From: Schmidtea nova
Taxonomy: Eukaryota
NCBI GenBank assembly: GCA_044892505.1
Contig: CM097882.1
Location: forward strand, 298,158,001 to 298,222,000
DNA length: 64,000 nucleotides
Direction: 5' to 3'
Shown here: positions 6,837-62,540 of the stretch, one piece after another
Position numbering within the stretch: the stretch's first letter is position 1
How the letters are laid out: each line of letters opens with the position of its first letter
The notes under the pieces: generated by a model
What the model was told of the DNA's origin: nothing
Databases searched by the model: none
The model's input: the letters and a program-made list of their open reading frames with translations, nothing else
Program-made: the position numbers and the translations under genes

Positions 6837-6883
<47 letters not shown>

Positions 6884-17812: not shown

Positions 17813-18275
17813 AGTAGGAGGATGTGTCAGGTCTGCGTCACTATGAGTTATCGCGCGTTTTTTTTTGGCGCCATTTTTTTAAAGTGTGTTTTGTTTAAAT
17901 GTTTGGAATTTTATTATTTATTTTATTATTAATTTTTTTTTTTTGTGCAGAATTGTCTCATTTTGTTATATGCTTATAATATTTTGATGAGTGCTTTCAT
18001 TGAACGTTTATCATTGAAGTTGTAGAAAAATATTAAGAACAATAATAAATTATATTAACAAAAGTAAATTAATAATATTAAAAAAAAAAAAATAAATAAC
18101 TAATTAATATAAATTAATAAAAAAAAATTATTTAAATAAAAAAAAAAAGAAATAATTTAATAATAAAATAAATAATAAAATTCCAAACATTTAAACAAAA
18201 CACACTTTAAAAAAATGGCGCCAAAAAAAACGCGCGATAACTCATAGTGACGCAGACCTGACACATCCTCCTACT
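17813..18275. mobile_element. 463-bp foldback element made of Polinton-type termini (mini-Polinton)
   Basis: Starts AGTAGGAGGATGTGTCAGG and ends CCTGACACATCCTCCTACT, with long inverted arms. Reading inward from 18275 it aligns over ~310 bp with the terminus at 37236-37545 that abuts a polB gene. No TSD seen. Confidence 0.75.
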
Positions 18276-37235: not shown

Positions 37236-39213
37236 AGTAGGGGGATATGAGGAGTCTGGATCCGTATGAGTTATCGCGCGTTTTTTGGCGACATTTTTAA
37301 AGTGTGTTTTGTTTAAATGTTTGGAATTTTTTATTATTATTTTTATTATTATTTTTATTTTATTATTATTTTATTTATTTTTATTTTTTATTTAATTAAT
37401 TTTTTTTTAATTAGTTATTTATTTTTTAAATATTATTAATTTACTTTTGTTAATATAATTTATTATTGTTATTATAAATTTTGAAACACTTCAATGATAA
37501 ACGTTCAATGAAGGCACTACTCAAAATATTTTAAGAATATATCACATGGTGAAATACGATAAATATTAAACTAATTATTTATTATTATTATTATTATTAA
37601 TATTACTATTATTTCTATGACGTAACCATAGTTTCTAAAAATTATTACCCAAATTATAAAAACAGACTGAAACTAATCTGTACAATATATAACTAAATAA
37701 TTAAAAAACAAAGTTCTTCAATAAATTTTATTTAAACAAAACTTTCATCTTGGAGATATCCAGGTGGATCTTGGAATTGTTGATCTGGATTGATTCTTGG
37801 ATCGGTATGTTGAAATATAAACAAGTCACCTTCCATATAATGGCCATATGCCAAGCTTTTATTTTTCGCCACCCATTTCCTTTTATCATCTGCGTTTGTC
37901 AGTGCAGTCTTTTCATGTTTAATAGTAAAAAGTTGGTGATTTTTACTTGTGATTCTCGTTTGGGGAACAGAAAATATTTGGTTATTATTAAAACAGTCCA
38001 GGTACGACTGATGCTTTATGTCAGTACCCGCTAATGTTGCCCCCTTAGCTTTATTAGTTTCCTCGTCACCTAAAAGACTATAACATTTAGGTCTAAGAAA
38101 CACCCACTCCTCGTATTTAAGCCCTTTATTCTCGTCTTTGAACTTGCCAATGACAGAATCAAGAGAAAGAAAAAGTTTGAGAAGTCTCCAATGAAGAACA
38201 TAGTTCTTCTTGGGATAATGCGTAAGCATCAACTTCTTAACCTTTGAGCCAGGTGGACACATCTTTTCAGCGGCAACTGGCAAATCATCCAGCTTGTCGT
38301 GAATCGAATCAGGAATTTCTAAATCGACTTCTAATGTAAATCCAAATGTTAATACTTCTAAATTAGCAGATTCACAGTAATAAATTATTTTATTTAATTT
38401 TTCCCTATCAGTTACCCATTTAAATTCTTTATAAGGTAGTTTTTGGCTTAAAGCCCACCCATATAAATTATTTATATCTATATAAAGAAGCTCAGTGTCG
38501 TCGGAGGATACTACATGGTGTTTGTTAACAAATGTTAACCCACCACGGATCCCCCCTTCGAAAAAATAATTTTTCTCCATATCTTGAAGCAACTCGATAG
38601 GAGATTTCAAAGTCATCAAAGCTGAATTCCATGACATGCCTGGAATTCCCAAGAAATTAAGAGGCTCAAGTCGGTTATGTGCAATGGATTTTGCCCTAAA
38701 TTGCTGAAAAAAGTCGGCAAGTAAGAAAACATCCAATTTCAGATATAGCATCATATAATCAAACAATGTTTCACAATTAAATTCATCCCATATCTGTTGA
38801 GCTTTTTCATACTCGTCGATTTTAACTCCTTCCCAAATCGGTGGCAACTCGTATGTATTTTGTAAAACCTCTAAAGAAGTTGCAAAATTATATGGGAATA
38901 TGCCTTTGGAAGTAACTATAGTACCTATAAATTCGGATGAAGTAAGAGGAAAATCTGTTAAAGTCTTTACAGCATCGTTTAAGCTACAGCTTACAAATTG
39001 GCAAGAATCGATAAATTTAATAGTTAAACTATCGACTCTTGCATATAAAGTCAAAATCTTTTCACTTGTAGTAGGAATACAACTTATTTCCCATTTATCG
39101 AATTTATTTAAACCATACTTGAGGATATGATGCAAATCATATCCGCGTAAATTATGAAATATTACTAGAATGACCAATCTTATTTGCCGAGAAAAATTGC
39201 ATTTAGAGCAAGC
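37236..39213 (-). mobile_element. Polinton B remnant: one terminus plus the 3' part of pPolB
   Basis: Terminus begins AGTAGGGGG at 37236 and shares its sequence with 17813-18275. The polB ORF ends 180-190 bp inside the shared terminal segment. Confidence 0.8.
37732..39213 (-). pseudogene. polB: Protein-primed DNA polymerase B fragment with in-frame internal deletion
   Basis: ACSKC...IFHNLRGYD, IDSCQF, KGIFPY, YLKLDVFLLAD, GIRGG, YIDINNLYGWA and FLRPKCY. Lacks motif B (KxxxNSxYG) and motif C (DTDS); 5' truncated. Confidence 0.92.
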
Positions 39214-39251
39214 TGTAGCTTAAACGATGCTGTAAAGACTTTAACAGATTT

Positions 39252-44575: not shown

Positions 44576-46075
44576 AAACCCCAGTGTGGCAAAGGCTTTC
44601 ACTTATCAGACATACAATAAAGTTGTTACACTTTAACTGAACAAAATCTCAAAATCTCAATTATAGACTTGCAAATAATAACGAAACTATAAACTAATAT
44701 TCACTTAACAAGCATGTTTTTATTGGTCCAAAAGTCTTGTAATTAAATTACAAACTGATTGGACGTCATAAACCACAGACAAAAAGATGGGAAGAAGAAT
44801 TCTCAAAATAATTTTTTTCCACAGAAAAATTGGCACAAATGTGTCCTGACAATATTTTCAAAAATTATTTCAATAATTTCAATTTGTCTGAAAATTTAAT
44901 TTTTCTAAACAATACAATATGCGAGTAGGTAGATGTGTGGAGTCAAACACAAAGAAATGAGTCATAATGCGTGGGCGGAAAATTTTAAACAAAGAACTTT
45001 TTTTTTGGAACCCCTCCCCCGGGGGGGGGGGGGGTCAATTTTTTTTTTTTTTTTTCGCGCCAAAAATTTTTGAAATTTTTTTTTGAAATTTTTTTTTTTC
45101 GCGCCAAATTTAAATTTGAAAATTTTTTAACACAAATTTTTTTAACACAAATTTTTTCAACACAAATTTTTTTTTTAACATAAATTTTTTTTTTTAACAC
45201 AAAATTTTTTAACACAAAATTTTTTAACACAAAATTTTTTAACACAAATTTTTTAACACAAATTTTTTCAACACAAAATTTTTCAACACAAAATTTTTCA
45301 ACACAAATTTTTTCAACACAAAATTTTTTAACACAAATTTTTTTTTTTTAACACAAATTTTTTTTTTTTTCAAAATTTTTTTTTTAACAAAGAACTTTTT
45401 AAACAAAGAACTTTTAAATGCGTGGGCGTAAAAATTTTTAAACAAAGAACTTTTTTCGAGACCCCCCATGGGGGGGCTAAATTTTTTTTTTTTTTTTTTC
45501 AAAAAATATTTTTTCGCGCCAAAAATTTTTTAAATTTTAAAAATTTTTTTTTTTCACACCAAATTTATTTTAGTAAATTTTTTTTTTTTGACACAAAGTA
45601 TTTCAACAGAAATAAGAGTCATCAAAAAGTTTGCAACACGCGTGCAACTTAAACAAAGACAATGCAATACACGTGCAACATGAACAAAGACATTCAAAAT
45701 ACAAAATAAAATTTATTTATAAATATATCGTTGTGTACGTGTACAAAATTTAGTTTCAAAATTATTTACATCTGAATTATTACTCGGAATATTATTCATA
45801 GGAATATTATTCATTGTAATATTATTCATCGGAATACTAGTATTTTTCGGAATATTATTCTTTGGAATATTTGACATCTTCTCCAACCGTATGGATGCCG
45901 ATAATATCATTATAATTATTAATATAAATAAACTTATATAATGTAATACAATGGCTGTTTTTTCATTTTCAACTGTTTGATTTTGGTATCTGACTTCATA
46001 TTCTTTTTTAACAAAAGTTTGATTGATACATTTTAATCGTTCAACTATTTTCATCATTATTTTGGCAATCATTTT
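44576..46075 (+). repeat. Left TIR of Polinton A (~1.5 kb)
   Basis: Reverse complement of 61186-62540. Contains ~13-bp AACACAAATTTTT tandem units, C-run/G-run palindromes and the 3' half of the membrane-protein gene. Confidence 0.95.
45053..45523. promoter_or_regulatory. Three TTTCGCGCCAAA E2F-consensus sites in the left TIR
   Basis: Exact 12-mers at 45053-45064, 45097-45108 and 45512-45523; mirrored at 61739-61750, 62014-62025 and 62058-62069. Confidence 0.55.
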
Positions 46076-46294
46076 TTCAATGTCATTATTAATCACATTA
46101 TTTTTGGAAGGACATTGATTACATTGTAATTTTATTTGACTGCATTCAATGTTTGAGTAAAGACATATATCATTATAACTCGCACAAGTACTATCCTGTT
46201 TTCGAAACGGATGGGATGATTGACAATCTTCCAAAGCTTGTTCTCCTTCAGTATTGTGAACACATAATAATAAAATAACTATATTTAATTTCAT
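45713..46294 (-). CDS. Predicted type I membrane protein: signal peptide, Cys-rich ectodomain, TM helix, repetitive tail
   Basis: MKLNIVILLLCVHNTEG, six Cys in 38 residues, TM AIVLHYISLFILIIIMILSASI and IP(K/M/S)NN repeats. Confidence 0.7.
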   Translation of the reverse strand: MKLNIVILLLCVHNTEGEQALEDCQSSHPFRKQDSTCASYNDICLYSNIECSQIKLQCNQCPSKNNVINNDIEKMIAKIMMKIVERLKCINQTFVKKEYEVRYQNQTVENEKTAIVLHYISLFILIIIMILSASIRLEKMSNIPKNNIPKNTSIPMNNITMNNIPMNNIPSNNSDVNNFETKFCTRTQRYIYK

Positions 46295-46360
46295 TTTAAA
46301 AACAAAAACTAATATCAAAACTAAAATTGTTCATACTAAAAAATATTTATTAAAAAACAA

Positions 46361-46777
46361 TTATGCGTATCTTGCATTGTCAACTCTCCAAATTGGAGTA
46401 ACAACATCTTTTTTATCAATCTTGTACCCTTGAATAATAACGGTAACGAACCAATGTTCTTGATCCATGAAATCAATTGTTTGAAACGCATCATGGAACC
46501 GAGTTTTTCTGTTATTGATGTACATGGTTTCTTTACAAGATAAATTAACATTCATCTTTGAAAACAATCGATTTAATGTTATTATATTTTCTTTAGCAAT
46601 AATTATAGCAAGACTGTCATATAAAGATTTTGTTAACTTTACCGGATAAGATAATCGATACGGTATTTCATTAACCAAAAAATAAATTCGGCTGTCGTAG
46701 TATATCTGGACTGGTTTTACCTCAGTCTGATATATTTTTTCTTCGCTTATATCTAAATTTTGTTTTCTTGAATTCAT
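46361..46777 (-). CDS. 138-aa Polinton accessory protein with an LSCKE (LxCxE) motif
   Basis: Intact ATG-to-stop ORF, tightly packed with its neighbours; family unknown. Confidence 0.7.
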   Translation of the reverse strand: MNSRKQNLDISEEKIYQTEVKPVQIYYDSRIYFLVNEIPYRLSYPVKLTKSLYDSLAIIIAKENIITLNRLFSKMNVNLSCKETMYINNRKTRFHDAFQTIDFMDQEHWFVTVIIQGYKIDKKDVVTPIWRVDNARYA

Positions 46778-47031
46778 TTTATAAATTGTGACAATATTTT
46801 ATAAAATGTCTTTGTATTTATACTAATGACTGGATGTCTTTGTCCAATCATATTCATGCATTTATCTTGCACACACTATGCATCTGTATTGCAATGTCTT
46901 TGTTGTATGCGTGCATGTTTAATTAATTTGTATATGTTCAATAATGAGCTTTTACAGATAAAAACAATCACAGAATATGTTCTGCTACTAGGGTTCTGTT
47001 ACCAGGGTTCTGCTCGGAATGTTCTGATACA

Positions 47032-47066
<35 letters not shown>

Positions 47067-47326
47067 GTTTTTGTATTTATTTCATAATTATTATTAATAT
47101 TATTATTCATCAAAAATAAAAACACATTCTTACTTATTCTCATTTAATCAAAACGTTCATAACTAAAATACTTTTTTAAAACCCAAAACACTTTCTTATT
47201 TAATAAAAAGTTGATTAAAATAATTAAAACATTAACATAAAAAGCTATTACAAATAAAGAATTCAAAACTCAAAAATAATTTCAAAAACTTTTATTAAAA
47301 AAAAAAATATATAATAATAATAACAA

Positions 47327-47952
47327 TTACATATCAGATGGTTCACCGCCAAGAGATTGGCAACCATCATTATCATCTACACAATCATCAACCTTTCGGT
47401 GGCACTCATCACAATCAGGTGATTGAGGCGATTCCATAGAAGATTGTTCATCTATAGTTGATGCTTCAATCTCAATTGAATCATCAATTGGTTCGGGAGT
47501 TGAGTTGAGCCATCTCTCTTGTTCCATCTCCTCCTCGATAATCTCCTTCAATTCTTTTGTTTCGAATTGATTGAGGGTATTTCGGAGAACCCATACTTGT
47601 AATTTGCGAATCCTATCCACACAGTGCCCGCATTGATAGGCGCACAATATATGTTCGGCCATAAAAGGCAAATCATTGTTGAGATTTTCGAGGTGTTCCT
47701 TTAGAATCTTATTAACATCTAGTCCCGTCAAAACGTGAATTTTGTATGGGAACAGCTCCGGTGCTGTATAGGTCAGCGTCTGCATCAGATTGGGAAACAT
47801 CTCAGCCAGTTTGGTGTAGATGACGGACATGCGTTTTTCTAAAAATAAAATATATTAAATTTGAAAATATAATAATTTTATTATTTACCATTTTTTAAAT
47901 TCTTTATTTTTTGCGACATAATTGTAGATATAAACTTTGTCAGTTTGTTCAT
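47327..47952 (-). CDS. Two-exon 191-aa Polinton accessory protein with acidic C-terminus
   Basis: Exon 47952-47889 (MNKLTKFISTIMSQKIKNLKN), 50-nt GTAAAT...TTTAG intron 47888-47839, then exon 47838-47327 in frame (E-KRMSVIY...). Confidence 0.7.
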
Positions 47953-48057
47953 AGTTTATATACGAAACAAACACACATGATTTAGAAAACGATACATAAT
48001 GAACCAATCAGAGTGAAGCATGCACAACATGTCTTTATTCTCGAAATACACACAGAG

Positions 48058-48070
48058 CCAATCAGAATCG
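48058..48070 (-). promoter_or_regulatory. CCAAT-box motif CGATTCTGATTGG upstream of the 47952 gene (second CCAATCAG at 48004)
   Basis: Identical 13-mer in the same relative orientation upstream of the pol leader at 54640-54652. Confidence 0.5.
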
Positions 48071-48097
48071 TGCATTTCTAATGCATCGATATTGCAT

Positions 48098-48565
48098 TCA
48101 TGAGTCACATGTTAGTATGAAATCAACAAAGGCTTTATCTTCTATAACTGATTTTATATCGTTAATAATATCATCAACCATAGTTGAATAATCTTTGTTT
48201 TTTAATCCTAATATGACTAATTTCCCACTTGCAAATATATTTACACACATGGGATTATATTTGGTATATCTCAAAGCTGGAAATAATTCTGGCTCGTAAA
48301 CACACGGTATTAATTTCGATAATTCATTCAAATTACAAATAAATCATAAATCCGCAGTTACAGTTATCGATTGTATTGTTAAATCGTAAAACTCAACTTG
48401 TTCGTCACTAATGAATTCCTTGCATCCCATTATTCTATATCTTCCTGTTTTAAAGTATATTTTAGGGTATTTCCCACTTCGATCTACAATTTGCTGGGGT
48501 TTTCCATTTGGAAATTTCATGTGTGATACATCTGTCTTACCCTTGTAATTAATGTTTCTAATCAT
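48098..48565 (-). CDS. TATA-binding-protein-like gene with one in-frame TGA (48346-48344)
   Basis: The two listed ORFs are the same frame. IQSITVTADL*FICNLNELS...YEPELFPALRY...VNIFASGKLVILGLK matches TBP repeat 2 (YEPELFPGLIY...LIFVSGKVVLTGAK). IYFKTGRYRIMGCK corresponds to repeat 1. Confidence 0.85.
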
Positions 48566-48658
48566 TACTGAAAATATTTTTAAATGAAATAATTACTTTG
48601 AGAACCAGTATTTAAAACAAATATAAACAATAATATTAATTAAATATAATTTTTAAAT

Positions 48659-49282
48659 ATGGAATTAAGAAATGATGCAGTATTTCAAATTGTTGGTCCG
48701 AGCGGGAGTGGAAAAACTTTATTTGTTTGTAAATTATTGCAATCGAAATTATTCAAGTCAAAATTTAATAATATTTATTGGCATAGGGGTGCTGACGACG
48801 AAAGTGGAATGACACAAGATCAGTTTTGTAAAGTAAAAATGACAATCATTAAAGGTTTCGATAAAAACTGGTCATCTAGATTAAAACATGGTGATGTGAT
48901 TATCATTGACGACTTGTATCAAGAAGCAAATAAAGAAAAGGATTTCAATAATTTATTTACGAAAATCAGTAGACATAAAGGTGTTACTGTTATTTTTATA
49001 ACTCAGAATTTATTTCATCAGGGCGGTAGTCATCGAACTCGTAATTTAAATGTTCAATATCTTGTTGTTTTTAAAAATCCTAGAGATGCAACAGTTATTG
49101 ATTTTCTGGCAAGACAAGCTTATCTTTCTAATCGTAACTTTTTGATTGAAGCCTTTCAAGATGCTACAAAATCTCCTCATGGATATATTTTCCTGGATTT
49201 TACTCAACAACGCAGTGATGATGTACGCGTTAGAACTGATATTTTTTACCCTGAAGGAGCCATGGTTTATAAACAAAGTTAA
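48659..49282 (+). CDS. A32/FtsK-HerA-like genome packaging ATPase
   Basis: Walker A GPSGSGKT, Walker B VIIIDD, SRH, ITQNLF and FKNPRD; intact 207 aa. Confidence 0.95.
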   Translation: MELRNDAVFQIVGPSGSGKTLFVCKLLQSKLFKSKFNNIYWHRGADDESGMTQDQFCKVKMTIIKGFDKNWSSRLKHGDVIIIDDLYQEANKEKDFNNLFTKISRHKGVTVIFITQNLFHQGGSHRTRNLNVQYLVVFKNPRDATVIDFLARQAYLSNRNFLIEAFQDATKSPHGYIFLDFTQQRSDDVRVRTDIFYPEGAMVYKQS

Positions 49283-49302
49283 TTTAGTTTTCAATCGTAA
49301 TC

Positions 49303-49821
49303 ATGTTAATGAAATCTCGAGTAAAGTTTGAGCCATTGATAAAGGCTAGAACAAAGAAAGCGGGAAAGAAAACAAAGAAACTATTTACAAAGAAATCTAT
49401 AAAGAAATCAAGAAAGAAATCCAAGAAAATACTTATGGATAATATTCCCAAAAATAATCAAATTAATTTGAAATCTAATGCTAAACAAGCACATCATCGG
49501 AGTTTACCGTTTTTTAATGCATTACTTAAAGCCCCTTCCGTTAGAAGAATGGGTATTCTTCAATCGTTTCCTAGTTACGTCATCGATGATTTACTCGCTA
49601 TTTTAATTAAAGTCGTGCGAGGTAAAATGAATCTAACTCCATCTAATCGCCGTGTTTTGAACAGGCATAAAAAACCATTGTTGTCGCTAGTAAACTCAAA
49701 AAATAAAAAACTTATGCGTAAAGTAATATATAAACAACAAGGTGGTTTTATCGCAGCATTGTTACCATTAGCATTATCTTTATTGGGAGGTGCTGGTTTA
49801 TTGGGAAAAAGAAAGTCATAA
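49303..49821 (+). CDS. Basic putative virion core protein ending in QQGG plus a hydrophobic helix
   Basis: Lys-rich N-terminus, LNRHKKPL, and QQGGFIAALLPLALSLLGG; lies between the ATPase and integrase genes. Confidence 0.75.
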   Translation: MLMKSRVKFEPLIKARTKKAGKKTKKLFTKKSIKKSRKKSKKILMDNIPKNNQINLKSNAKQAHHRSLPFFNALLKAPSVRRMGILQSFPSYVIDDLLAILIKVVRGKMNLTPSNRRVLNRHKKPLLSLVNSKNKKLMRKVIYKQQGGFIAALLPLALSLLGGAGLLGKRKS

Positions 49822-49824
49822 ACA

Positions 49825-50046
49825 ATGGGTCAATCATTACCTAATTTAAATTTAAATTGTAAATCTTCTTGTTGTAATGGAGAAGATCTGGACGAACCCA
49901 AAAGACGACGCCGGTTTCGGTGGAGTCGAAAAGCTAAGGAAAAAAGCACAGAAGTCGAAACAACAGACACAAAGTTGGTTATCGGGGCAACTTGCATACA
50001 GTCTAAACAAACCGATGTTGAAACGGTTTCCAACTCGAGCATATAA
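49825..50046 (+). CDS. Candidate overprinted ORF (MGQSL...CKSSCC...PKRRRR) overlapping the integrase 5' end
   Basis: First ATG after the upstream stop, ACAATGG context, 73 open codons, offset from the integrase frame. Confidence 0.4.
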   Translation: MGQSLPNLNLNCKSSCCNGEDLDEPKRRRRFRWSRKAKEKSTEVETTDTKLVIGATCIQSKQTDVETVSNSSI

Positions 50047-50923
50047 AACATATAGAATCAATGATTTGTGGCAAATGGATTTGATGGAAATGATTCCGTA
50101 TTCCAAAATTAACAAGGGGTACAAGTATATTTTAACATGTATTGATGTTTACAGTAGATTTGCTCGAGCAATTGGAGTCAAATCTAAATCTGCTAATGAC
50201 ATGGCAATCGCTATCAAGACTATGATGAAAAAGGATCGGCCAACTAATTTACAAACTGATTTGGGTAAATTTAAATTTAAATTTATACATATTTAATATT
50301 TTTTAGGAAAGGAATTTTACAACAGTAAAGTCAAGGAAGTTATCAAGGGAATAAATCATTATTCGGTATTCTCACAATTCAAAGCCGCTCATGTCGAGAG
50401 ATTTAATCGAACTTTGCGTGATCGATTGAAAAAATACTTTGTTTTTAAAGGCAATAAAACCTGGATTAATGTCTTACCTCAATTGATTCATAGTTATAAT
50501 CATAGTGCTCATCGGGGTATAAATGGCAGGAAACCGGCAGAAGTAGTTGATACTGAAAATATTGTGAGTGAAGTGAAAGTAAAGAAACCAAAATATAAAG
50601 TTGATGATCATGTTCGAATTAGCAAGATTAGTACATCGCCATTCGTTAAAAATTTTGATAATAATTGGAGTGATGAGGTATATCAAATATCGAAAGTCAA
50701 CACAGTGCAGAATCCTGTCATGTATACTATTCGTGACTCTGATAACAATATAATCAGCGGCAAATTCTACGAACAAGAATTACAAGTTATTCCTAAACCT
50801 ACGATATTTAGAATTCAAAAGATTTTGAAGACTAAAATGGTAGGTAAGGATAAACAATACTATGTCAAATGGCATGGATATAAAGAACCATCATGGATCT
50901 CGTCAAAAAATCTAGTAAAGTGA
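49877..50923 (+). CDS. Retroviral-like (rve) integrase with C-terminal chromodomain, one 42-nt intron
   Basis: WQMDL, QTDLG|KEFYN joined across intron 50265-50306 (GTAAAT...TTTAG, contains an in-frame TAA), HVERFNRTL, and chromodomain YYVKWHGY. Confidence 0.95.
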
Positions 50924-51936
50924 ATTTTTACACTATTTTACCGAGCAATAGTTGTCCGAATATCCATCCGGATAATACCGCAAGTAAATTCATGGTGAAT
51001 TTACCTAATCCAATTTATTTAAACGGAAATTGGGAAGTTGCTCTAATGGATTTTACATTTGTTTACCAACCTTTTCCATATTATAGTTATTGTAAAATTT
51101 ATTACTATAAAAAGAAAACAATTGTTGCAAATGCGTTTTTCTCGATATATAATAATAATGGCCATCTGAATGTTCCAACTCACACCATTGATCCTGATAT
51201 CGAATTGTGGCAACGAGGTGGAAGAATATTTCTCACGTGTAATGTTGTTCCGTATACAATTACATTTAATGATCTTGAGATAGCAAAACGAATGGGAAGT
51301 AATAAACTGACAATAACATGTAATGAAGAAGAATGTGAATTCAAAGTTATGCAAAACTTGGCCAGTAATGATGAAGAAATAATTACTTTTACTATATCGT
51401 ATGATCGTGAAGAAGGACATGTATTCACATTCAAGGAAGAGTTGTATATAACGCATCTAGATGAATTACAGAAATATATTAGCGATAATTGTTCGGATAT
51501 TTTTACAGTTGTCGAATTAAATAAATTGTTCAAATTCAAACTCAAAGAAAAAATCACTAAAGTCCGATTTGATAAATACTTGGTCAATACATTGGGATTA
51601 GATAAGGATACATTTACCGATAAAAATATCATTTTTGGTGTTCGTCAACCGAAAATATCTAAACTTCATCAGCAATTATTCGTGTATACAAACATTATCG
51701 AACCCATTATTGTTGGTGATTCCTTGGTTCCTTTACTAAAATCGGTATGGATTGAAAAATACGAGCCAGATGAAATTGTTCAAATAGTAATGGATAATCC
51801 AATGTATTTATCTGTTTCAACATCCTGTATAAACAATATAGAAATAAATATCCGATATGACAGCGGAAGATTTATAAAATTTCCAAAAGATTCAAAAACT
51901 CACTTAACTCTACATTTTCGAAAAAACGATGAGTAA
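50893..51936 (+). CDS. Minor capsid protein (penton, single jelly-roll)
   Basis: FYTILPSNS...NTASKF...LPNPIYLNGNWEVAL, VYTNIIEPIIVGD..VPLLK, IEINIRYDSG and LTLHFR; intact 347 aa. Confidence 0.9.
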   Translation: MDLVKKSSKVNFYTILPSNSCPNIHPDNTASKFMVNLPNPIYLNGNWEVALMDFTFVYQPFPYYSYCKIYYYKKKTIVANAFFSIYNNNGHLNVPTHTIDPDIELWQRGGRIFLTCNVVPYTITFNDLEIAKRMGSNKLTITCNEEECEFKVMQNLASNDEEIITFTISYDREEGHVFTFKEELYITHLDELQKYISDNCSDIFTVVELNKLFKFKLKEKITKVRFDKYLVNTLGLDKDTFTDKNIIFGVRQPKISKLHQQLFVYTNIIEPIIVGDSLVPLLKSVWIEKYEPDEIVQIVMDNPMYLSVSTSCINNIEINIRYDSGRFIKFPKDSKTHLTLHFRKNDE

Positions 51937-52301
51937 TCCCGATATAGTTTCAATGTACAGTGATAGCCAAACTGGTGGCGAATTACCGTATTTTGTCGGT
52001 AAACAGTATGGATCAGGTTGGTTGAAAACTATTGGGAGATTTGCACTTCCAATTCTTAGACGACTAGGTAATATCGGTATGAATACTGCCAAGGACGTTA
52101 TCATGAAAGATAATAAAATATTACCGTCATTGAAAACCAATGCTTAATAAAGCTATACCTGCTGTAACTCAAATGCTTCCTACAATTACAAGTATGTTTA
52201 CAAAAAATAAGGAACCTGAATCTGTACCGGTAGGACCAAGACGTAAACGAAAACGTATAAACAAACGAATGAAAGGTCATGGAACTATATTTGAAGAATG
52301 A
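51929..52301 (+). CDS. Putative virion core/membrane-active protein, frameshifted near 52141
   Basis: SQTGGELPYFVGKQYGSGWLKTIGRFALPILRRLG. An adjacent frame continues LNKAIPAV...GPRRKRKRINKRMKGHGTIFEE to a TGA that overlaps the MCP ATG. Confidence 0.7.
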
Positions 52302-53518
52302 TTTGCGGTAAATCTGAATTATGTCTTTTTGATCGACCATCACCTCAAGCAGTTATTGAATATGGGGCGTTTGAAGATGTGTTTCCAATGAATTCTATTA
52401 CAGATAGTAGAAATGATGTTGAATTTTACATTAATGGTTCTCAAACCGAATATTTGGATTTGAACGATACATTATTGTCCGTTACAATCAAGGTTGTAGA
52501 TAAAGATAAAAAGGCTCTAGTCGATGCGAGTGATGTAATTCCCAATAATTACCTGTTTCATACACTTTTCAAAGATGTAATTCTCGGATTTAATAATATA
52601 AAAATCGAGGGTGGAAACAATACATATGCGCACAAGGCAATAATCGAAACTATTTTAAATTATACGAATGATGCGAAAGAAACATGTCTTACTCCAATGG
52701 GATATGGTTCAGCTGACGATCGGAAAAAATGGATCAAGGGATCTAAACTTTTCAACATGTGTTCGTCATTACAACTGGATTTTATGGATCAACCTAAATA
52801 CTTACTTCCCTGAGTTAATGTACATATTAGATTGAAGCGATCTGATTCTGCATTATCATTGAAATCGGCAGCTGGGAAACCAATAATCCAAATAGTTGAT
52901 GCAAAATTGATGGTAAGAAGAGTTCGATGTGAATCTTCAGTTTTGGCCGGTCATCAAATTGGTTTAAATAAAAAACATGCAATTTATCCATTAAAATCCA
53001 AAGAAATCGTATCGTTTGCAATCGGTAAAGGGGCATCATCATTTTACAAGGAGCAAATATTTGGAGATAGACGAATGCCTAATTTCATTCTTGTGGCTTT
53101 TCAATCCGAAAATCCATATAATGGATCTTATACCGAGTCAACATCTACATTCAAACATTTTAATGTGACTTCATTAACATTGTCGAAAAATACCGATTAT
53201 CGTGAAACATATACCCAGGATTTTGAAAATGATAATTTTAGTGCATCATATATGCAAAGTCTTGTCCGAAATCTAGGTTATTTGGATAAAAACTTGAATT
53301 GTGGTATAGGTTTAGATGAATTTAAATCTAGTTATCCATTCTTTACATTTGTTCTGGCTCCCGATTTTGATTTGAATCAAAGCCAAATCCCTCAAAATGG
53401 AAATTTACGACTCGATATAAAGTTTGCAAAAGCTATTGATGAACCTGTTCATGTAGTTATATATGGAGTTTTTGAAAATGAAGTACAAATTACTGCCAAT
53501 AGAACAATATTGGTTTGA
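52298..53518 (+). CDS. Major capsid protein (double jelly-roll, hexon-like) with in-frame TGA at 52811-52813
   Basis: CGKSELCLFDRPSPQ, YLDLNDT, PNNYLFHTLF, KYLLP*VNVHIRLKRS, FKHFNV, LAPD and GNLRLDIKF. Both listed ORFs are in the same frame. Confidence 0.92.
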
Positions 53519-53571
53519 GCAGAAATCAAACAGTATAAATGATCAAAGTTATTATTTTTATTATTATTATT

Positions 53572-53951
53572 ATGGAGTAAGATTTTTTAATTGATTAATT
53601 ATTTATTTTTTAATTAGTTCTATTCAGGTATTAAAACAAGGTAAAAAACTATTGGGAAATCAATTTATTGGAGTATTTCCTCTGGATAAAATACCTTATT
53701 TGAAAATGAATCAAGCCATCATTGTAAATACTCAGACATCTACGTTGGGCGGTGAACATTGGATTGCAGTTTATGTGAAACCAGATCGAATACATGTATT
53801 TGATCCCTTTGGATATTATTATCCGAATTTACTTGTTCGAAAACTTCAAACTATTGGTAAACCTATTGTGTATAATAGAATTCGGTATCAGCATCCTTTA
53901 ACAATCACTTGTGGTGAACATTGCCTTGCATGGTTAAAATCAATGTTATAA
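53572..53951 (+). CDS. Adenain-like cysteine protease, one 41-nt intron
   Basis: ATG GA|GTAAG...TTAG|T (intron 53577-53617) gives MDSIQVLKQGKKLLGNQFIGVFPLD. Catalytic H (GEHW), D (FDPFG), Q and C (QHPLTITCGEHC). Confidence 0.92.
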
Positions 53952-53983
53952 ACAATTTATTTTAATATATTTTATTTGAAAAA

Positions 53984-54385
53984 ATGTCTTGTTATTTTAT
54001 CGATTTTTATGGTTATAATGAAATGGGTGGAACAACAATTAAGGAATTATGTATTATGAATGTTAATAATATTTTCACACCCCAGTATTATATATACAGT
54101 GATTTATCTTTCTGGCCTGATCGTATAGAATCGTTTGAAGGACAAGATTATTTTTGCCCAAAATGTATAATGGATGATATCACAGATAAAGGAGCTATTT
54201 TCTATGTTACCGATAATGAAAAGATGTATGTTTTGAAGAAGTATTTCCCGAAATTAAGATTAATCAAATATACTTATAAAGAAGTTGAATATGTTCCTGA
54301 AAACATTTCATGTCCCTATAAAGACCATTGTATGTGTGCCTATAAAGGGTGCTTGTCTGCTGTTGTAGATTATTTAAAACAATAA
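53984..54385 (+). CDS. 133-aa accessory protein, DnaQ/DEDD-exonuclease-like N-terminus with Cys/His tail
   Basis: YFIDFYGY...IKELCI and CPYKDHCMCAYKGC; the fold assignment is an inference. Confidence 0.55.
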   Translation: MSCYFIDFYGYNEMGGTTIKELCIMNVNNIFTPQYYIYSDLSFWPDRIESFEGQDYFCPKCIMDDITDKGAIFYVTDNEKMYVLKKYFPKLRLIKYTYKEVEYVPENISCPYKDHCMCAYKGCLSAVVDYLKQ

Positions 54386-54639
54386 ATGTATAATGTGATT
54401 TTATTATTTTTTATTATTATTTTTTAAAATATTATTATTTTTATTATTATTAATATTAAATATTATTATTTTAATCATAAAGACATGACCAGTGCATGAT
54501 CAGTGCGTGATAAGCACATGATGAAACACGTCATATCATGTCTTTGTCACGATACAAAGCAATATCGTGACGTCAAACACACATAAACAAAGGTACATTA
54601 TGTGTGCAGCATGTGTGCATGTATTTGCCTATCCTATCT

Positions 54640-54652
54640 CGATTCTGATTGG
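54640..54652 (+). promoter_or_regulatory. CCAAT-box motif CGATTCTGATTGG ~100 bp upstream of the pol leader ATG
   Basis: Same 13-mer as 48058-48070, followed by a TATA-like TATATAGTATATA. Confidence 0.5.
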
Positions 54653-54752
54653 TCGGTTAATAAAATTCATCTTTATATAGTATATACTTGCATTATTTCG
54701 TCACTTTACTTACAAATTTTTTAAATCAATTTTAAATTAATATCAATCAATT

Positions 54753-57700
54753 ATGAACAATATCCGAATCGTAAAGGAAAGACATCTCGCAGGAGGTGTT
54801 AATGGTAATTTTATTATTATTATTTTTAATTTTATTATAATATATGCTTTCAGAAATGAATATTGCGCGAAATATCGCCACAGTTATGATGCGACAAGAT
54901 GACCAGTCGCCATCTAGAAATGTTGCTCCAAGAATACGAGTTGGAGAACACAATGGTATTAGATTTTTGGGTAATATTTATTTTTATTATTACTATTATT
55001 TTTATTATTATTTTACTTTAGTTAATAATGATCGCAACAACAACAACAATGCCGAAGCATCAAGGATGGGTGCATTTTCTTTAATGGGACGAACTGATTG
55101 TAATTTTATTTATTTATTTTATAAATATTATTTTACAATGAATTTTTCAGATAATATGAGAAATGTGGATATAGATGATGAGCTCCAGAATGACGTTCCG
55201 AATGTTGCCGACGTCCCGAAAGTTGTCCAGAATGATGTCCCGAGTAATGCTCTTGTTAATCCGGATGCCCCAATTTATGGGAAGACAAAATGTAGGCATT
55301 TATCTTTATTTATTTTTTAATTTAGCATATTTTATTTAACTTTTTTATTTAAATAATACTTTTTATATATTATTTTTAAATAATTTAGTAATGGTTTGTA
55401 AAAACAATTACTAAATGATTTAAAAGTATAATATTAAAAGTAATTATAATATGAAATATTCATTTACTTTTTTTTTTTTTTTGATAATTAACATGTTTGA
55501 AATATAGATTTTTGATAAAAAGATACAATTTAGAAATAGAATTTTATATTATGAAATAGTGATTTTTTTTTTGATAGATACAATTTTGAAATATAATTTT
55601 ATATGATGAAATAGTGATTTTTGAAATAGAATTTTATATGATGAAATAATGATTTTTGATAGATACCATTTTGAAATATTATTTTATATGATTAAATAGT
55701 GATTTTTTGATAGATACCATTTTGAAATAGAATTTTATATGATGAAATATTTATTTTTTGATAGATACAATTTTGAAATAGAATTTTATATGATGAAATA
55801 TTTATTTGTTGATAGATACCATTTTGAAATATTATTTTATATGATAAAATAGTGATTTTTGAAATAGAATTTTATATGATGAAATATAGATTTTTGATAG
55901 ATAACATTTTTGAAATAGAATTTTATATGATGAAATAGTGATTTTTGATAGATACCATTTTGAAATAAAAATTTATATGATGAAATATTTATTTTTTGAT
56001 AGATACAATTTAGAAATAGAATTTTATATGATTAAATATTGATTTTTTATATAATATTTGGTTTTATTATCTTATATATTTTGAATTTATTTAAATATTT
56101 ATTTAAATATTTATTTAAATTCAGGTTCAACCTACAAAAATTTTTGCAACAGTAGGTTCCATAATGATTGTCATATCATTATGGAAAAATACTACTCGTT
56201 GCCATATAATACTGTTACCCACCTCATATGCCCCACCTGTAAACTTATCGAAATTTGCCCATATATTGACTTCTTTAATAGGCACTGTAACCATCTTTCA
56301 CAGTTTCAGCCTTCTAAGAAAATTTTATTTAAACAACTTTTTCCTAATTTTATTAATCCTATAAATAATACTATAAATAATAATAATAATAATAATCTAA
56401 ATAATACTATGAATAATACAAATAATATAAATGATACAAATAATATAAATGATACAAATAATCTAAATAATACAAATAATATAAATAATACAAATAATAA
56501 TAATCAAACAAATAATATAAATAATACAAATAATACAAATAATACAAATAATATAATTAATACAAATAATAAACGAAAACATATTAAAATTCCGGATTCA
56601 GTTCCTACTAAAATTCAAATAATAGATCTCACTGATGATGAATTAATAGTCATCAGTGATGATGAAAATTTAAATAATAATGTAAATAATTTAAATAATT
56701 TAAATAATAACCAAATCGGATATGGTGCCGTCGAAATCGTCAATGACCTAAATAACAATCATATAATTGTTAAAATGGATGTAGAAAATCTTAATTTGAA
56801 AACGGTCTCAGTACCGACAATTCTTTTAGATAAATTAACTTTTGAAGTGAACAAATATAAAACTGTCATAATCCAATTCTGTTTGAAGGTGGAATTTGAG
56901 AAGGACGATGAATTACAATCGTTCGTTATCTCAAATTCTGCCAGGGTCTGAAGTGATACCTTCATTGAGGAAGGTATTGCTCTTTTAAATGAAAAAATCA
57001 TCACGATAAATGAGAAAGGTAGTAACTGGACTATCTCAAAAGTTGAATACATTAGCTTTGTCTTGACCAGATACTCTGAAATAACTCGATTAAGCGGAAG
57101 TCAGTTTATCGAAACTCCGAAATCTTTAAGGAAAAAGAAATGTTTAGTAAATGTAGTAAATCAGGACAACTTTTGTTTTTTATATAGTTTCCTTTCTATA
57201 ATTAAATATGAGAGTTTAACAAATGAAACTCGTTGCATTCCTTCCTCTTATAATCTTTCACAATTGAATTATGACCCCAATGATATGCCTATGAGACTTG
57301 GTAATATAAGTAAATTTGAGAGACAAAACCCAGGTTATAGCGTCAATGTTTTGTCATATGATGAAAATCCCTTATTAGATCTTATTGATGAAAATGAGGA
57401 TATTGTCCTTAAACATCCTTTTATTGACTTAATTTACAAGTCAAAAGTTGTAGGTGGTACCCCAATAAATCTGTTATTGCTTCAAAACAGAAAAACTTTT
57501 CATTATATAGGCATCTTTGATTTGAATCGTTTTTTGAATTGCCGTAATAGCGCTATAACCCCTGTAAGGATTTGTAGTAAATGGTGTCCGAGATGCTTAA
57601 ATGGTTTTCGAAATGATGAGGTTTTCAATAGGCATAGGGGTCTTTGTGATAAGAATCAAACTGGTACAACTTTGTACACTTTACCAAAAAATAAGATGCT

Positions 57701-60187
57701 GGAATTTACTGAATGGCGCAAAACAGTGACTCCTCCCTTTGTTATTTATGCCGACTTTGAGGCAATCTTACCTGCGGACACCAGGTATTTCCAAAAGCAT
57801 TTGCCTATTTCAGCCGGTTTGTTATTAATTAACAACTTTACTGGACAAAAATTCTATAAATCTTTTGCCGGCCTTAATTGTGTAGAGGATTTTCTAAATG
57901 AAATAGAGCTTATAAGTCGCCACATAGTAACACCGTACTATTATAAAAACGCTAATAAAACTATGATAATTAGCCATGAGCAACAAATTGAATTTAACAA
58001 CAGCACAATTTGTTATTTATGCAAAAAGCTATTATGTCGACCTGTTAGGGACCATGACCATTTCACCGGTCTTTTTCTTGGAGCAGCTTGCTCAGAATGT
58101 AATAAAAATAGGCAGATTAGACATACCCTTCCTGTCATCTTTCACAATTTAAAGGGGTATGATCTACACCATATTCTAAAATATGGTTTATCTAAATATC
58201 GTAAATGGAATATTAGCTGTATTCCATTAACCAGTGAGAAATTTCTTAGTCTTTTTGCTAGGATTGACTCTTTAACTGTCAAATTCATAGACTCATACCA
58301 ATTCGTCAGCGAGTCTTTAAATAATGCTGTCAAAACTCTTACTTCCTTACCACTCACCGAATCAGAATTTCAGGGCACTATAATTACAGCCAAGGGCATT
58401 TTTCCGTATGATGCTGCAACTTCCTTAGAAGTTTTACATTCTACTTTAGCTCTCCCACCGATCTGGAAAGATGTAAAGCCAGAAGAATATGCAATGGCGC
58501 AAAGAATATGGGTTGAAACATCATGTAATTCACTTTTTGATTACATGATGGTTTATTTAAAACTGGACGTTTTTTTACTTGCTGATTTTTTCCAGCAATT
58601 CCGTTTCAAGTCTATTAATCATAATAGACTTGAACCTCTGAATTTCCTCGGGATTCCAAGTTTATCTTGGAGTTCTGCCTTAATGACCTTAGAATCTCCA
58701 ATCGAGCTCCTCACCGATATGGAAATGTACAATTTTTTCGAGGGCGGTATCCGTGGCGGACTAACTTTTATTAACAAACACTATGTAAAAACAAGCCCGG
58801 ATACCGCATTGCTTTACATAGACATCAATAACTTGTATGGATGGGCCTTAAGCCAACCTTTACCTTGTTCTAATTTTGAATGGGTCACAGATGACCACTT
58901 ATTAAATGAAATCGTTTGTCAGTGCACATCGGTTGATCTAGATGCACTTCATTATGGCTACACCATAGAAGTGGATTTGGAGATACCGGCATCAATTCAT
59001 GACAAACTGGATGATCTTCCAGTTGCCGCTGAAAAGATGTGTGCACCGGGATCCAAGGTTGAGAAGCTGATGCTCACGCATAATCCAAAGAAGAACTATG
59101 TTCTTCATTGGCGGCTTCTGCAACTATTTGTTAAATTAGGCATCGTGATAACAAAGGTCCACAGGGCCATAAAATTTAATCAAAGCAAAATTTTTTTAAA
59201 TTATATTAATACCAACACGACGTTACGATCAGCGTCAACAACTAAATTAGATAGGGATTTTACAAATTATTGAATAACAGCCTTTACGGCAAAACCGTAG
59301 AAAATTTAAAAAAGCGTATTAATTTGCGCCTATGTAATAATCCTGAAAAATTACTTACTTATTGTTCGAAACCTACGTTTCGTAAAACTAATAAAATCGA
59401 TAATGATCTTATTTCTGTCTTGCTGCGAAAGGAGTCAGTATGTTTGGATAGACCCAGCTACATCGGTCAAACTGTACTGGATTTATCCAAACTAAGAATG
59501 TACCAGCTACAGTATGTAGAGTTACAAAAATATCGTGACGACTATAACTGTAAGATTAACATCGTCGCTGGGGATACTGACTCCTTTTTTCTTGAGGTCA
59601 AAAACTGTAGTCTTGACACTCTTTTACCGGCTATGGTTAATGATTGCTTGCTGGACACCTCCAATTATGACCCTATGGATCCTTTATACAACAGAAACCT
59701 TGACTCTGTCATTGGAAAGTTCAAAGACGAGAGTAAAGGGATGTTGTATAAAGAGTGGGTGTTTCTTAGACCGAAATGCTACAGCTTAATGGGTGATGAG
59801 GAAAGTATGAAGGCTAAGGGGATATGCATGAAGGATACTGGACTAACTCATCAGTCGTATCTCGATTGCTATTTAAATAATAAGATCTATACGGTCCCCC
59901 AGTTTAGGATAACATCTAAAAATCACCAGCTTTTTAGTGTGAAAAATAATAAGCGGGCATTAAGCTGTAGAGATGACAAGCGTAATTGGGTAGGGAAAAA
60001 TAAAAGCCTGGCATATGGCCATTATAGAGGGGGTAACAGTATTTTAGATACGGAGCAGCCTCAGCAGAATCAACAACAGCTACAACAACAACAACAACAA
60101 CAACAACAGCTACAACAACAACAACAGCTACAAGATGATGATCCGTATTTCTTTTACGAAGAGCCGGAGCATAATTATTTGCAATGA
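54753..60187 (+). CDS. polB: Protein-primed DNA polymerase B precursor with a predicted four-intron leader; one in-frame TGA and one frameshift
   Basis: Exons 54753-54804, 54854-54970, 55022-55099, 55151-55291 and 56125-60187. TGA 56949-51 is followed in frame by EKGSNW. Motifs YADFE, RDHDHFTG, IFHNLKGYD, YIDINNLYG, LNNSLYGKT, AGDTDS and LRPKCY. One T is missing at ~59256-59261 (expected DFYKLLNNSLYG). Confidence 0.93.
55490..56045. repeat. ~50-bp degenerate tandem array inside the 833-nt pol intron
   Basis: Repeated GATAGATAC(C/A)ATTTTGAAATAGAATTTTATATGATGAAAT units. Confidence 0.9.
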
Positions 60188-60199
60188 TGGCTAGATATA

Positions 60200-60600
60200 A
60201 ATCTAATCCGAAAATCAAAAAAAAAAAAAAATAACCGAAAATCAAAAAAAAAAAATTTAAGAAAATCAAAAAAAAAAAGAAGTTATTCAGAAGGATCAAG
60301 AAAGATATGAGAATGCACAATCGGCCCTCTTCAGGGCCACAATTTATGATTGAAAAACAGTTTTTTGAAATTTTAGATTTCTAGAAAACAGAAAGGAAAA
60401 CAGATTGTTAAAAATGATTATGAAAACAGAAACCGAAAATACTAGTGATTATTAAACCAGAAATAATTTGAAACAGAAACCGAAAATACTATTGATTATT
60501 AAAACCGAAAACAAAATACATAAAAGAAATATGAAAACCGAAAAGAAAAACCGAAAAGAAATATGAAAACAGATAAAGAAACAGATTGAGAATGAAATAA
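60200..60600. repeat. A-rich degenerate repeats (AAAACCGAAAA-containing units) downstream of polB
   Basis: Recurrent AAACCGAAAAT / AAACAGAAACCG units. Confidence 0.7.
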
Positions 60601-60739
60601 TGGTCCTCTTTAGGGCCTTATTTTTTGATTGTAAATAATATTGCGCAATCAATAAAAACTATGAAAATATTTTATTTCGTTTTGTTTCTTTGTGTTTAGC
60701 ATTATTTTTATAAGTTAATATTATTAGTTTTATAAGTTA

Positions 60740-60744
60740 TTATA

Positions 60745-60828
<84 letters not shown>

Positions 60829-60886
60829 AGTTACTATCACTATTATCACTAATATTATCAATATTATTATTATTATTATTATTATA

Positions 60887-60937
<51 letters not shown>

Positions 60938-61137
60938 AGTTACTATCACTATTATCACTANNNNNNNNNNNNNNNNNNNNNNNNNNNNNNNNNNNNNNNN
61001 NNNNNNNNNNNNNNNNNNNNNNNNNNNNNNNNNNNNNNNNNNNNNNNNNNNNNNNNNNNNNNNNNNNNNNNNNNNNNNNNNNNNNNNNNNNNNNNNNNNN
61101 NNNNNNNNNNNNNNNNNNNNNNNNNNNTAATATTATC

Positions 61138-61185
<48 letters not shown>
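60740..61185. repeat. (ATT)n satellite interrupted by a 167-N gap (60961-61127)
   Basis: Direct reading. Confidence 0.95.
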
Positions 61186-61187
<2 letters not shown>

Positions 61188-62540
61188 AATGATTGCCAAA
61201 ATAATGATGAAAATAGTTGAACGATTAAAATGTATCAATCAAACTTTTGTTAAAAAAGAATATGAAGTCAGATACCAAAATCAAACAGTTGAAAATGAAA
61301 AAACAGCCATTGTATTACATTATATAAGTTTATTTATATTAATAATTATAATGATATTATCGGCATCCATACGGTTGGAGAAGATGTCAAATATTCCAAA
61401 GAATAATATTCCGAAAAATACTAGTATTCCGATGAATAATATTACAATGAATAATATTCCTATGAATAATATTCCGAGTAATAATTCAGATGTAAATAAT
61501 TTTGAAACTAAATTTTGTACACGTACACAACGATATATTTATAAATAAATTTTATTTTGTATTTTCAATGTCTTTGTTCATGTTGCACGTGTATTGCATT
61601 GTCTTTGTTTAAGTTGCACGCGTGTTGCAAACTTTTTGATGACTCTTATTTCTGTTGAAATACTTTGTGTCAAAAAAAAAAAATTTACTAAAATAAATTT
61701 GGTGTGAAAAAAAAAAAATTTTAAAAATTTAAAAAATTTTTGGCGCGAAAAAATAATTTTTGAAAAAAAAAAAAAAAAAAATTAGCCCCCCCGGGGGGGG
61801 TCTCGAAAAAAGTTCTTTGTTTAAAAATTTTTACGCCCACGCATTTATAAGTTCTTTGTTTAAAAAGTTCTTTGTTTAAAAAAAAAATTTTGAAAAAAAA
61901 AAATTTGTGTTAAAAAAAAAAAATTTTGTGTTGAAAAATTTTGTGTTGAAAAAATTTGTGTTGAAAAAATTTGTGTTAAAAAATTTTTGTGTTAAAAAAT
62001 TTTCAAATTTAAATTTGGCGCGAAAAAAAAAAATTTCAAAAAAAAATTTCAAAAATTTTTGGCGCGAAAAAAAAAAAAAAAAATTGACCCCCCCCGAGGG
62101 GGGGGGTTCCGAAAAAAAAAGTTCTTTTAAAATTTTCCGCCCACGCATTATGACTCATTTCTTTGTGTTTGACTCCACACATCTACCTACTCGCATATTG
62201 TATTGTTTAGAAAAATTAAATTTTCAGACAAATTGAAATTATTGAAATAATTTTTGAAAATATTGTCAGGACACATTTGTGCCAATTTTTCTGTGGAAAA
62301 AAAATTATTTTGAGAATTCTTCTTCCCATCTTTTTGTCTGTGGTTTATGACGTCCAATCAGTTTGTAATTTAATTACAAGACTTTTGGACCAATAAAAAC
62401 ATGCTTGTTAAGTGAATATTAGTTTATAGTTTCGTTATTATTTGCAAGTCTATAATTGAGATTTTGAGATTTTGTTCAGTTAAAGTGTAACAACTTTATT
62501 GTATGTCTGATAAGTGAAAGCCTTTGCCACACTGGGGTTT
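61186..62540 (-). repeat. Right TIR of Polinton A (~1.35 kb)
   Basis: Inverted copy of 44576-46075 with fewer AACACAAATTTTT units. Includes ORF 61189-61548, a duplicate of the membrane-protein 3' half. Confidence 0.95.

Follow-up and report, generated by a model that had tools for sequence, protein, structure and literature searches.

In the portions of the account available to us, vertebrate Mavericks are described as elements of 13-25 kb with terminal repeats of up to ~1.4 kb and AGT-type ends, most copies of which are degraded, while intact copies are intronless and carry 6-bp duplications (PMC8097293). Mixed pairings of Alpha and Beta genes have been described for the related adintoviruses (PMC8502044 and PMC11071296, both seen in part), and the part of the nematode Maverick study we could consult reports intronless core genes, with introns confined to host-derived cargo (10.1101/2022.07.12.499685). 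Here we analyze 64,000 nucleotides (nt) of Schmidtea nova DNA (GCA_044892505.1, contig CM097882.1, positions 298,158,001 to 298,222,000, forward strand), hereafter the window, in which positions 44576..62540 hold what is likely a nearly complete, recently inactivated endogenous Polinton/Maverick (adintovirus) of ~17.3 kb derived from a virus-capable lineage.

Its gene content makes it a genuine Polinton, and as first described it is ordinary. The features that are truly unusual and that set it apart from known Polintons, namely predicted introns, a TATA-binding protein (TBP) gene with a promoter box, and an overprinted open reading frame (ORF), belong to its lineage. Tentatively, as an idea that falls somewhat short of probable, we propose an animal Polinton clade with its own adenovirus-like nuclear program, in which an inherited intron would gate the protease, TBP and a TATAAAC box would switch virion genes on, an overprinted acylated protein would tie assembly to membranes, and integrase and polB introns would still be in the process of being gained.

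Virion genes and predicted introns

The six hallmark genes reported by the initial annotation are all present, four by Pfam and both capsid proteins by fold, and the strand layout it gave is also borne out, with left-arm genes on the minus strand and morphogenesis and pol genes on the plus strand (Table 1). Neither capsid protein has a Pfam match. The model of the minor capsid protein (penton) aligns with the mavirus penton at Z 13.8 (rmsd 6.1, 231 aligned) and with that of Sputnik at Z 13.0 (235 aligned); matches to PBCV-1, mavirus, Sputnik, and adenovirus chains span Z 11.4-14.5, and adintovirus and adomavirus pentons are matched in BFVD. For the model of the major capsid protein (MCP), the best PDB matches are iridovirus, PBCV-1, and Sputnik capsids. 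Among 2124 candidates we found 129 MCP homologues, the best being 84% identical over its full length, and no relative was confirmed in viral contigs (0 of 3 and 0 of 15 candidates). With these homologues and the confirmed capsid folds, the lineage appears virus-capable, and the earlier claim of a virus-capable family holds at the level of the lineage.

Relatives were collected in a metagenome scan that gave 74 loci (L-numbers below) from 157 candidates; these are mostly short, so absences mean little. The order ATPase, PZ-like, integrase, minor capsid, PW-like, MCP, protease recurs in relatives, and L024, L025, and L026 carry a tandem pair of penton genes (in L026, for instance, at 5616-6674 and 6671-7687). 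The ATPase is 52-72% identical to nine relatives and 38% to L061. The integrase chromodomain match (Chromo, E 2e-4) is below cut-off in the window copy and above it in L013. The protein-primed DNA polymerase B (pPolB, gene polB) retains its catalytic motifs in a gene that is broken in the window copy, and its N-terminal 368 residues, where an OTU-like domain might be expected, have no Pfam match. The polB gene opposes the virion module in L004, L006, L008, L018, L026, and L058; in the window and L029 the two share a strand, with polB downstream of the module. From these arrangements, the polymerase module appears flipped within the clade. In terms of adintovirus classes, polB looks Alpha-type and the virion genes Beta-type, a tentative assignment; the fold search returned distant matches, of 25% identity at best.

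Seven introns, all of 6-14% GC, are predicted from the sequence of the window copy: one each in the protease, integrase, and 167-residue protein genes, and four in polB. The 41-nt GT-AG intron predicted in the protease gene (53577-53617) begins two bases after the start codon, a position at which an intron is present in 14 of the 36 loci with a protease match, absent in 20, and unclear in 2. In an MCP tree of 34 rows, from which L058 and L048 were omitted for their short MCP, in which L007 was unclear and unused, and in which L061 is unlabeled, the window and all 14 intron-bearing loci fall within one 16-row clade (support 100/100). The protease intron occurs in 15 of these rows, L006 being the intronless member. 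This pattern fits one gain and one loss, and the intron may have been gained once and inherited through the clade, as a DNA-only replication cycle permits. Weighing against the strength of this pattern, the loci include near-duplicates, which bears on the intron counts and on the box counts given below; the 14 intron-bearing loci correspond to ~10 distinct elements (four near-duplicate pairs).

The predicted introns might instead be AT-rich insertions that arose after integration, through decay or host introners, and so not be viral. The 42-nt GT-AG intron predicted in the integrase gene (50265-50306, 7% GC, containing an in-frame stop) speaks for this, as it interrupts a stretch that is continuous and without an intron in 13 of 13 relatives, and so does the gain of introns after integration in dinoflagellate polinton-like elements, in the available part of their description (PMC11957031). 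The protease intron points the other way: it shares its position and GT-AG ends and differs in internal sequence among elements with MCPs 45-58% identical to that of the window, and a shared position with diverged sequence requires inheritance. Thus, we consider an origin after integration improbable for the introns as a whole, and tenable only for those of integrase and polB.

The 5' exons of polB are predicted at 54753-54804, 54854-54955, 55022-55099, and 55151-55291, with the main exon starting at 56125; the four introns between them are of phase 1, measure 49, 66, 51, and 833 nt, and end in the polB frame. By our reading of their sequences, introns toward the 5' end of polB are present in L018 and L029 as well. 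An array of 51-nt units occupies 55473-56051, inside the predicted fourth intron. A 158-residue ORF at 54844-55320 was considered as a gene and rejected, as it reads through predicted introns. The gene for the 167-residue protein has a predicted 50-nt GT-AG intron, in frame, at 47839-47888; no homologue of this protein was found in the 74 loci or among 9 candidates. We found no account of inherited spliceosomal introns in core genes of animal Polintons in the literature, where supplements and subscription papers may hold one. A survey filter that admits only long uninterrupted ORFs, like those applied to vertebrates and nematodes in the parts available to us, would class elements of this clade as defective or overlook their protease and integrase.

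TBP, the TATAAAC box, and an overprinted frame

The TBP homologue of the window scores 50.2 bits against PF00352 (cut-off 22.9), and the copy in L026 reaches 65.2 bits in two stretches and matches TBPs in the PDB; in all, the gene was found in 8 of the 74 loci. An exact TATAAAC is found 35-42 nt upstream of the ATPase, PZ-like, MCP, 133-residue, and predicted 167-residue protein gene starts, the last with the box 41 nt ahead of its exon-1 ATG. Thus 5 of the window's 14 gene starts have an exact copy 25-60 nt upstream (background 1.0%). Variants precede the protease, integrase, penton, and 138-residue protein genes, and neither the box nor a variant stands before TBP or polB exon 1 in the window. 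Across the relatives, 41 of 60 loci have ATAAAC 25-60 nt upstream of the MCP start, where the background is 5.3%.

From these sequence patterns, we lean toward the view that the element's TBP reads the TATAAAC box. Several observations count against it: the box upstream of MCP falls within the PW-like coding sequence, where protein conservation may inflate its count, polB of L026 is also preceded by the box, which blurs a split into early and late genes, and host TBP could by itself recognize a TATA-like box. In that case TATAAAC would be an ordinary TATA box and the element's TBP would be expendable cargo, or would act as a decoy that lowers transcription in the host, which is a serious possibility that we nevertheless judge not to be probable. 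It would suit the varying location of the TBP gene, which lies in the left arm in L001, L018, and L026 and after the protease module in L012, L013, L021, and L033. It would also suit the fact that only the second repeat of the element's TBP scores strongly against cellular TBPs, and the example of L022, where the 2.5 kb ahead of the ATPase show no TBP match although five genes are preceded by the box. A passenger or an ordinary TATA box is harder to reconcile with the 33 invariant columns in 7 aligned TBP copies from elements with MCPs only 39-58% identical to the window's, with a box that ends in AC and keeps tight spacing, and with its absence ahead of the TBP gene in three elements, those of the window, L018, and L026. 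We found no account of a TBP/TATAAAC switch in animal Polintons in the literature; supplements and subscription papers may hold one.

The third unusual feature is a 73-residue ORF that overlaps the integrase start in another frame. An ORF with the same MG start and cysteine pair, at the same frame offset, is present in 12 of the 13 loci with an integrase match. From its motifs, the protein is predicted to be acylated by myristoylation/palmitoylation. The literature on animal Polintons gave us no description of a myristoylated ORF over the integrase gene; here too, supplements and subscription papers may hold one.

In the program we propose, host RNA polymerase II would transcribe the early genes polB and TBP from host-type CCAAT/CRE promoters, the motifs of which are present in the element. 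The element's TBP would then recognize TATAAAC 33-42 nt upstream of packaging and virion gene starts and activate these genes, and the host spliceosome would splice the protease, integrase, and polB messages. As in the established model for the family, pPolB would copy the linear genome from its AGT ends, the ATPase would fill the jelly-roll capsid, the protease would mature the capsid, and the integrase would insert the genome. The box, the TBP, and the inherited intron give this lineage testable handles on how Polintons time their expression and whether they form virions.

Ends, breaks, and age of the window copy

The repeated ends of the element comprise 44576-46075 and its inverted copy 61186-62540. 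Outside arrays and homopolymers they have no substitution in 773 nt; 9 substitutions occur in the 506 nt of array- or homopolymer-rich sequence, where array lengths also differ. The outer 348 nt differ by no substitution and one indel, and no further copies of them were found in the 64-kb window or the 74 relative loci. The near-identity of the repeats outside arrays reported by the initial annotation therefore stands, with the qualification that it runs 348 nt past the probable termini. In the left repeat are 15-nt arrays, a duplication within the repeat, and the 3' portion of the gene for a 193-residue protein. At 44924 and 62191, the inner ends, we find the motif AGTAGG-NN-GATRTG, which also begins ends at 17813, 18275, and 37236, each starting at the motif with unrelated flanks. 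There are five matches in the window against 0.21 expected, and none of 100 shuffles reaches five; the pattern was derived from these same five ends, which makes the expectation flattering.

Because this terminal motif is common to two other Polinton-type relics in the window, we prefer the inner pair as the true ends, with fair confidence; the extent first given, 44576..62540, would then be too long by probably ~348 nt per side. The inner ends are separated by 17,268 nt, within the 13-25 kb range of Polintons, and bound terminal inverted repeats of 1152 and 1006 nt, within the 100-1500 nt expected. The outer 348 nt are probably flanking DNA copied along with an end. In the simplest reading, one end and this flank replaced the opposite end by copying in the cell, or an end was mis-joined in assembly, and either event would have removed the target-site duplication; none of 5-8 bp was found at the inner or the outer end pair, with small end shifts allowed.

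It is also possible, with a weight of evidence that we find insufficient to make it probable, that the outer ends first proposed are correct. The terminal repeat would then have been extended by 348 nt, the inner AGTAGG would be the vestige of an older end, and the duplication would be missing through recombination between two copies or through assembly. The outer 348 nt contain GACGTCA and CCAATCAG motifs whose other occurrences in the window are nearly confined to the element, and these CCAAT- and CRE-like motifs, which tell against the inner ends and favor the segment's belonging to the element, are shared with the region upstream of polB and occur once or never in the 44.5 kb of the window to the left of the element. 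Moreover, identity between the copies is the same on either side of 44924, an AGT trinucleotide is also present at 44583, and the 463-nt mini-element described below likewise has no target-site duplication, a further point against our preference. Outer ends are opposed by the three other Polinton-type ends of the window, which begin exactly at the motif of 44924 with unrelated flanks, and by the lack of a duplication at any outer end pair, and CCAAT and CRE motifs belong to promoters in general. Under either pair of ends, repeat identity does not date the insertion, and we rejected dating in this way: near-identical terminal repeats cannot date an insertion where identity continues past the ends, a caution that this copy provides.

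The copy as assembled is dead rather than an intact, active Maverick. After insertion it would have gathered five breaks, comprising in-frame stops in the TBP, MCP, and pPolB genes and frameshifts in the PW-like and pPolB genes; the ATPase, integrase, penton, and protease genes are unbroken once predicted introns are allowed for. Intact vertebrate Mavericks are defined by unbroken core frames, a 6-bp target-site duplication, and intronless core genes (PMC8097293). Here MCP and pPolB have stops, pPolB and the PW-like gene have frameshifts, no duplication of 5-8 bp was found, and introns are predicted in protease, integrase, and polB. Decay is nevertheless slight. The MCP deviates at 3 of 99 conserved columns, within the range of 0-14 among 40 homologues, and three stops in ~10.2 kb of coding sites correspond to ~0.6% change (95% range 0.1-1.6%), an estimate in which the protease, 327 of these sites, was read in the wrong frame with small effect. 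Five breaks with slight decay lead us to judge the copy recently dead, provided that the assembly is right. Decay of the genes predicts ~9 substitutions in the 773 nt of plain repeat sequence, where none is observed, in line with one end having been copied over the other. As a point against that reading of the ends, the surplus of breaks in genes relative to differences between the repeats is a weak signal, with P of 0.017, 0.05, or 0.29 according to which repeat differences are counted. As for the young insertion first suggested, slight decay and an MCP like those of intact relatives support it, whereas the five breaks and the undatable repeats do not.

An element that is in reality intact and active, with breaks and a right end produced by assembly errors, strikes us as unlikely. 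The scaffold is gapped, with a gap of 167 N immediately inside the right repeat; an inverted duplicate (3478-3723 versus 5599-5843, 98.8%) adjoins a gap of 500 N; and departures at conserved MCP columns are few. Yet of the five breaks, three are in-frame stops, each in a different gene and each flanked by sequence that stays in frame, and ATPase, integrase, penton, and protease are clean. The pattern of the compound ATT array resumes across the gap, which ties the right end to the element, and the two copies of the repeat have arrays of unequal length and 9 differing positions. The inverted duplicate repeats part of the decayed polB relic and is itself likely an assembly artifact, which calls for caution about the right end of the main element.

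Accessory genes, surroundings, and known Polintons

Eight ORFs beyond the hallmark genes can be counted, in agreement with the initial annotation. Its view that they form an unusual accessory set was mostly wrong: six of the eight recur in related elements, and two occupy the positions of the known Maverick PZ and PW genes. The PZ/pX-like and PW/cupiennin-like labels in Table 1 are ones we presume, the former from gene order and the latter from position.

Table 1. Features of the element and of related sequences in the window (aa, amino acids; loci, the 74 relatives)
Feature	Position	Strand	Evidence or remarks
Outer 348 nt	44576..44923	+	repeated inverted at 62192-62540
Left terminal inverted repeat proper, 1152 nt	44924..46075	+	starts AGTAGG
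193-aa predicted membrane protein	45713..46294	-	signal-peptide-like start, six-cysteine domain, hydrophobic segment
138-aa conserved protein	46361..46777	-	2/74 loci, L018 and L026, both near TBP
167-aa orphan acidic protein, predicted two exons	47327..47919	-	exon 1 47889-47919, exon 2 down to 47327
TATA-binding-protein homologue	48098..48565	-	PF00352 E 2.3e-13; head-to-head with ATPase; in-frame stop 48344-48346
Genome-packaging ATPase, intact	48659..49282	+	Pox_A32 E 5e-7 (Pfam)
Basic core protein, presumed PZ/pX-like	49303..49821	+	9/74 loci; position, C-terminal hydrophobic motif
73-aa ORF overlapping integrase start, other frame	49825..50046	+	begins MG, cysteine pair
Retroviral-type integrase with chromodomain	49877..50920	+	rve E 2e-8 (Pfam)
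Minor capsid protein (penton), intact	50893..51936	+	model pLDDT 84.6, fold matches
Small virion protein, presumed PW/cupiennin-like	51929..52301	+	52/74 loci; frameshift near 52145
Major capsid protein, double jelly roll	52298..53518	+	model pLDDT 87.6; in-frame stop 52811-52813
Adenain-type maturation protease	53572..53951	+	Peptidase_C5, E about 5e-6 to 8e-6
133-aa conserved protein	53984..54385	+	18/74 loci
Protein-primed DNA polymerase B (pPolB)	54753..60187	+	PF03175 DNA_pol_B_2 E 2e-23; Endonuclease_7; in-frame stop 56949-56951; frameshift near 59265
ATT microsatellite	60701..61185	.	includes 167-N assembly gap 60961-61127
Right terminal inverted repeat proper, 1006 nt	61186..62191	-	with truncated copy of 193-aa gene
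Inverted copy of outer 348 nt	62192..62540	-	copy comparison
Second Polinton family relic	37236..39219	-	one end AGTAGG at 37236, internally deleted polB
463-nt mini-element	17813..18275	.	two ends of second Polinton family
Decayed third polB fragment	5019..5992	+	sequence comparison

The 193-residue protein belongs to a rare family with three real homologues (P0158, P0159, and P0162) and none in the 74 loci; two of its five library matches are repeat matches. It has no Pfam match, no credible PDB match, and no atlas match above 0.77, and a suspected likeness to the cysteine-rich domain of TNF receptors found no support. The 138-residue family has no atlas match above 0.86 and a poor structure model. 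Relatives of the PW-like protein have 99-130 residues, and in the window copy the matching tail lies in another frame. The 133-residue protein is ~17 residues shorter than five of its six aligned relatives; its family has no Pfam match and no PDB match below E 0.15, which leaves a nuclease-like reading unsupported. NCBIfam matched none of nine proteins. Other cargo ORFs in relatives, at L026 222-719, L022 675-1263, and L001 1710-2171, look from their translations to be possibly ubiquitin-conjugating enzyme-like, dual-specificity phosphatase-like, and RING-like, respectively.

The window contains three polB copies. That of the main element is 74% identical in protein to the copy at 37.7-39.2 kb, while the relic at 5.0-6.0 kb, 54% and 48% identical to the other two, groups with both in a 7-row polB tree (99/98), where its branch is long. 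Of the at least three polB lineages claimed at first, the three copies stand, but only two families are clear in the tree; the third is a decayed relic, possibly of a third lineage, and decay could explain its divergence. The outer 86 nt of the arms of the 463-nt mini-element are 97% complementary, and we identify it as a non-autonomous Polinton derivative; no target-site duplication was found at its ends. With two polB families, a decayed relic, and this mini-element, the suggestion of a repeatedly invaded host is reasonable.

The host DNA is AT-rich, with genes for puromycin-sensitive aminopeptidase and NAE1 nearby. A divergent host protein kinase gene has two exons (Pkinase, Pfam) at 40894-42237 (+), ~2.3 kb left of the element. 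In the left flank 43198-43388 is a repeat 71% identical to 11167-11369, which suggests an insertion into transposon DNA of greater age. A GC-rich (46%) island at 19929-22275 (-) holds frames of 694 and 160 residues that have no Pfam or NCBIfam match and that we presume to resemble a recent DNA-transposon transposase. In a search of sequencing runs, the 5 matching runs belong to 2 studies; four come from a single organism (share 0.72-0.81), the fifth is a soil metagenome (0.32), and no RNA run is among the matches listed.

Comparison with described systems here relies on the portions of each source available to us. The element resembles vertebrate Mavericks (PMC8097293) in its size, repeats, probable AGT-type ends, and degraded state, in an ATPase adjoining the PZ(-like) gene, and in its module of integrase, minor capsid, PW, major capsid, and protease. 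It differs from them in that its lineage has predicted introns in protease, integrase, and polB as well as a TBP gene, and in that its core genes all lie on one strand, its probable ends read AGTAGG rather than (AGT)2, and no duplication is present. With adintoviruses (PMC8502044, PMC11071296) it shares a PF03175 PolB, an integrase with chromodomain, hexon, penton, FtsK-type ATPase, adenain, and small membrane-active core proteins. In what we could consult of these accounts, TBP appears only as a figure label for viruses from non-animal datasets (PMC8502044), whereas here the gene is in the element, and we found no description of spliceosomal introns in adintovirus genes (PMC8502044, PMC11071296), whereas the present lineage has predicted ones.

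Nematode Mavericks (10.1101/2022.07.12.499685, 10.1101/2023.08.22.554363) are similar in their invertebrate host, full virion set, cargo near a terminal repeat, and exchange of polB type; they carry a fusogen, in contrast to the present element, no ORF of which gave a fusogen match. Dinoflagellate polinton-like elements (PMC11957031) offer the likeness of spliceosomal introns inside integrated elements, those of our element being predicted. Their introns are described as mobile introners acquired mostly after integration, whereas in the lineage examined here one intron position appears to have been inherited across a viral clade.

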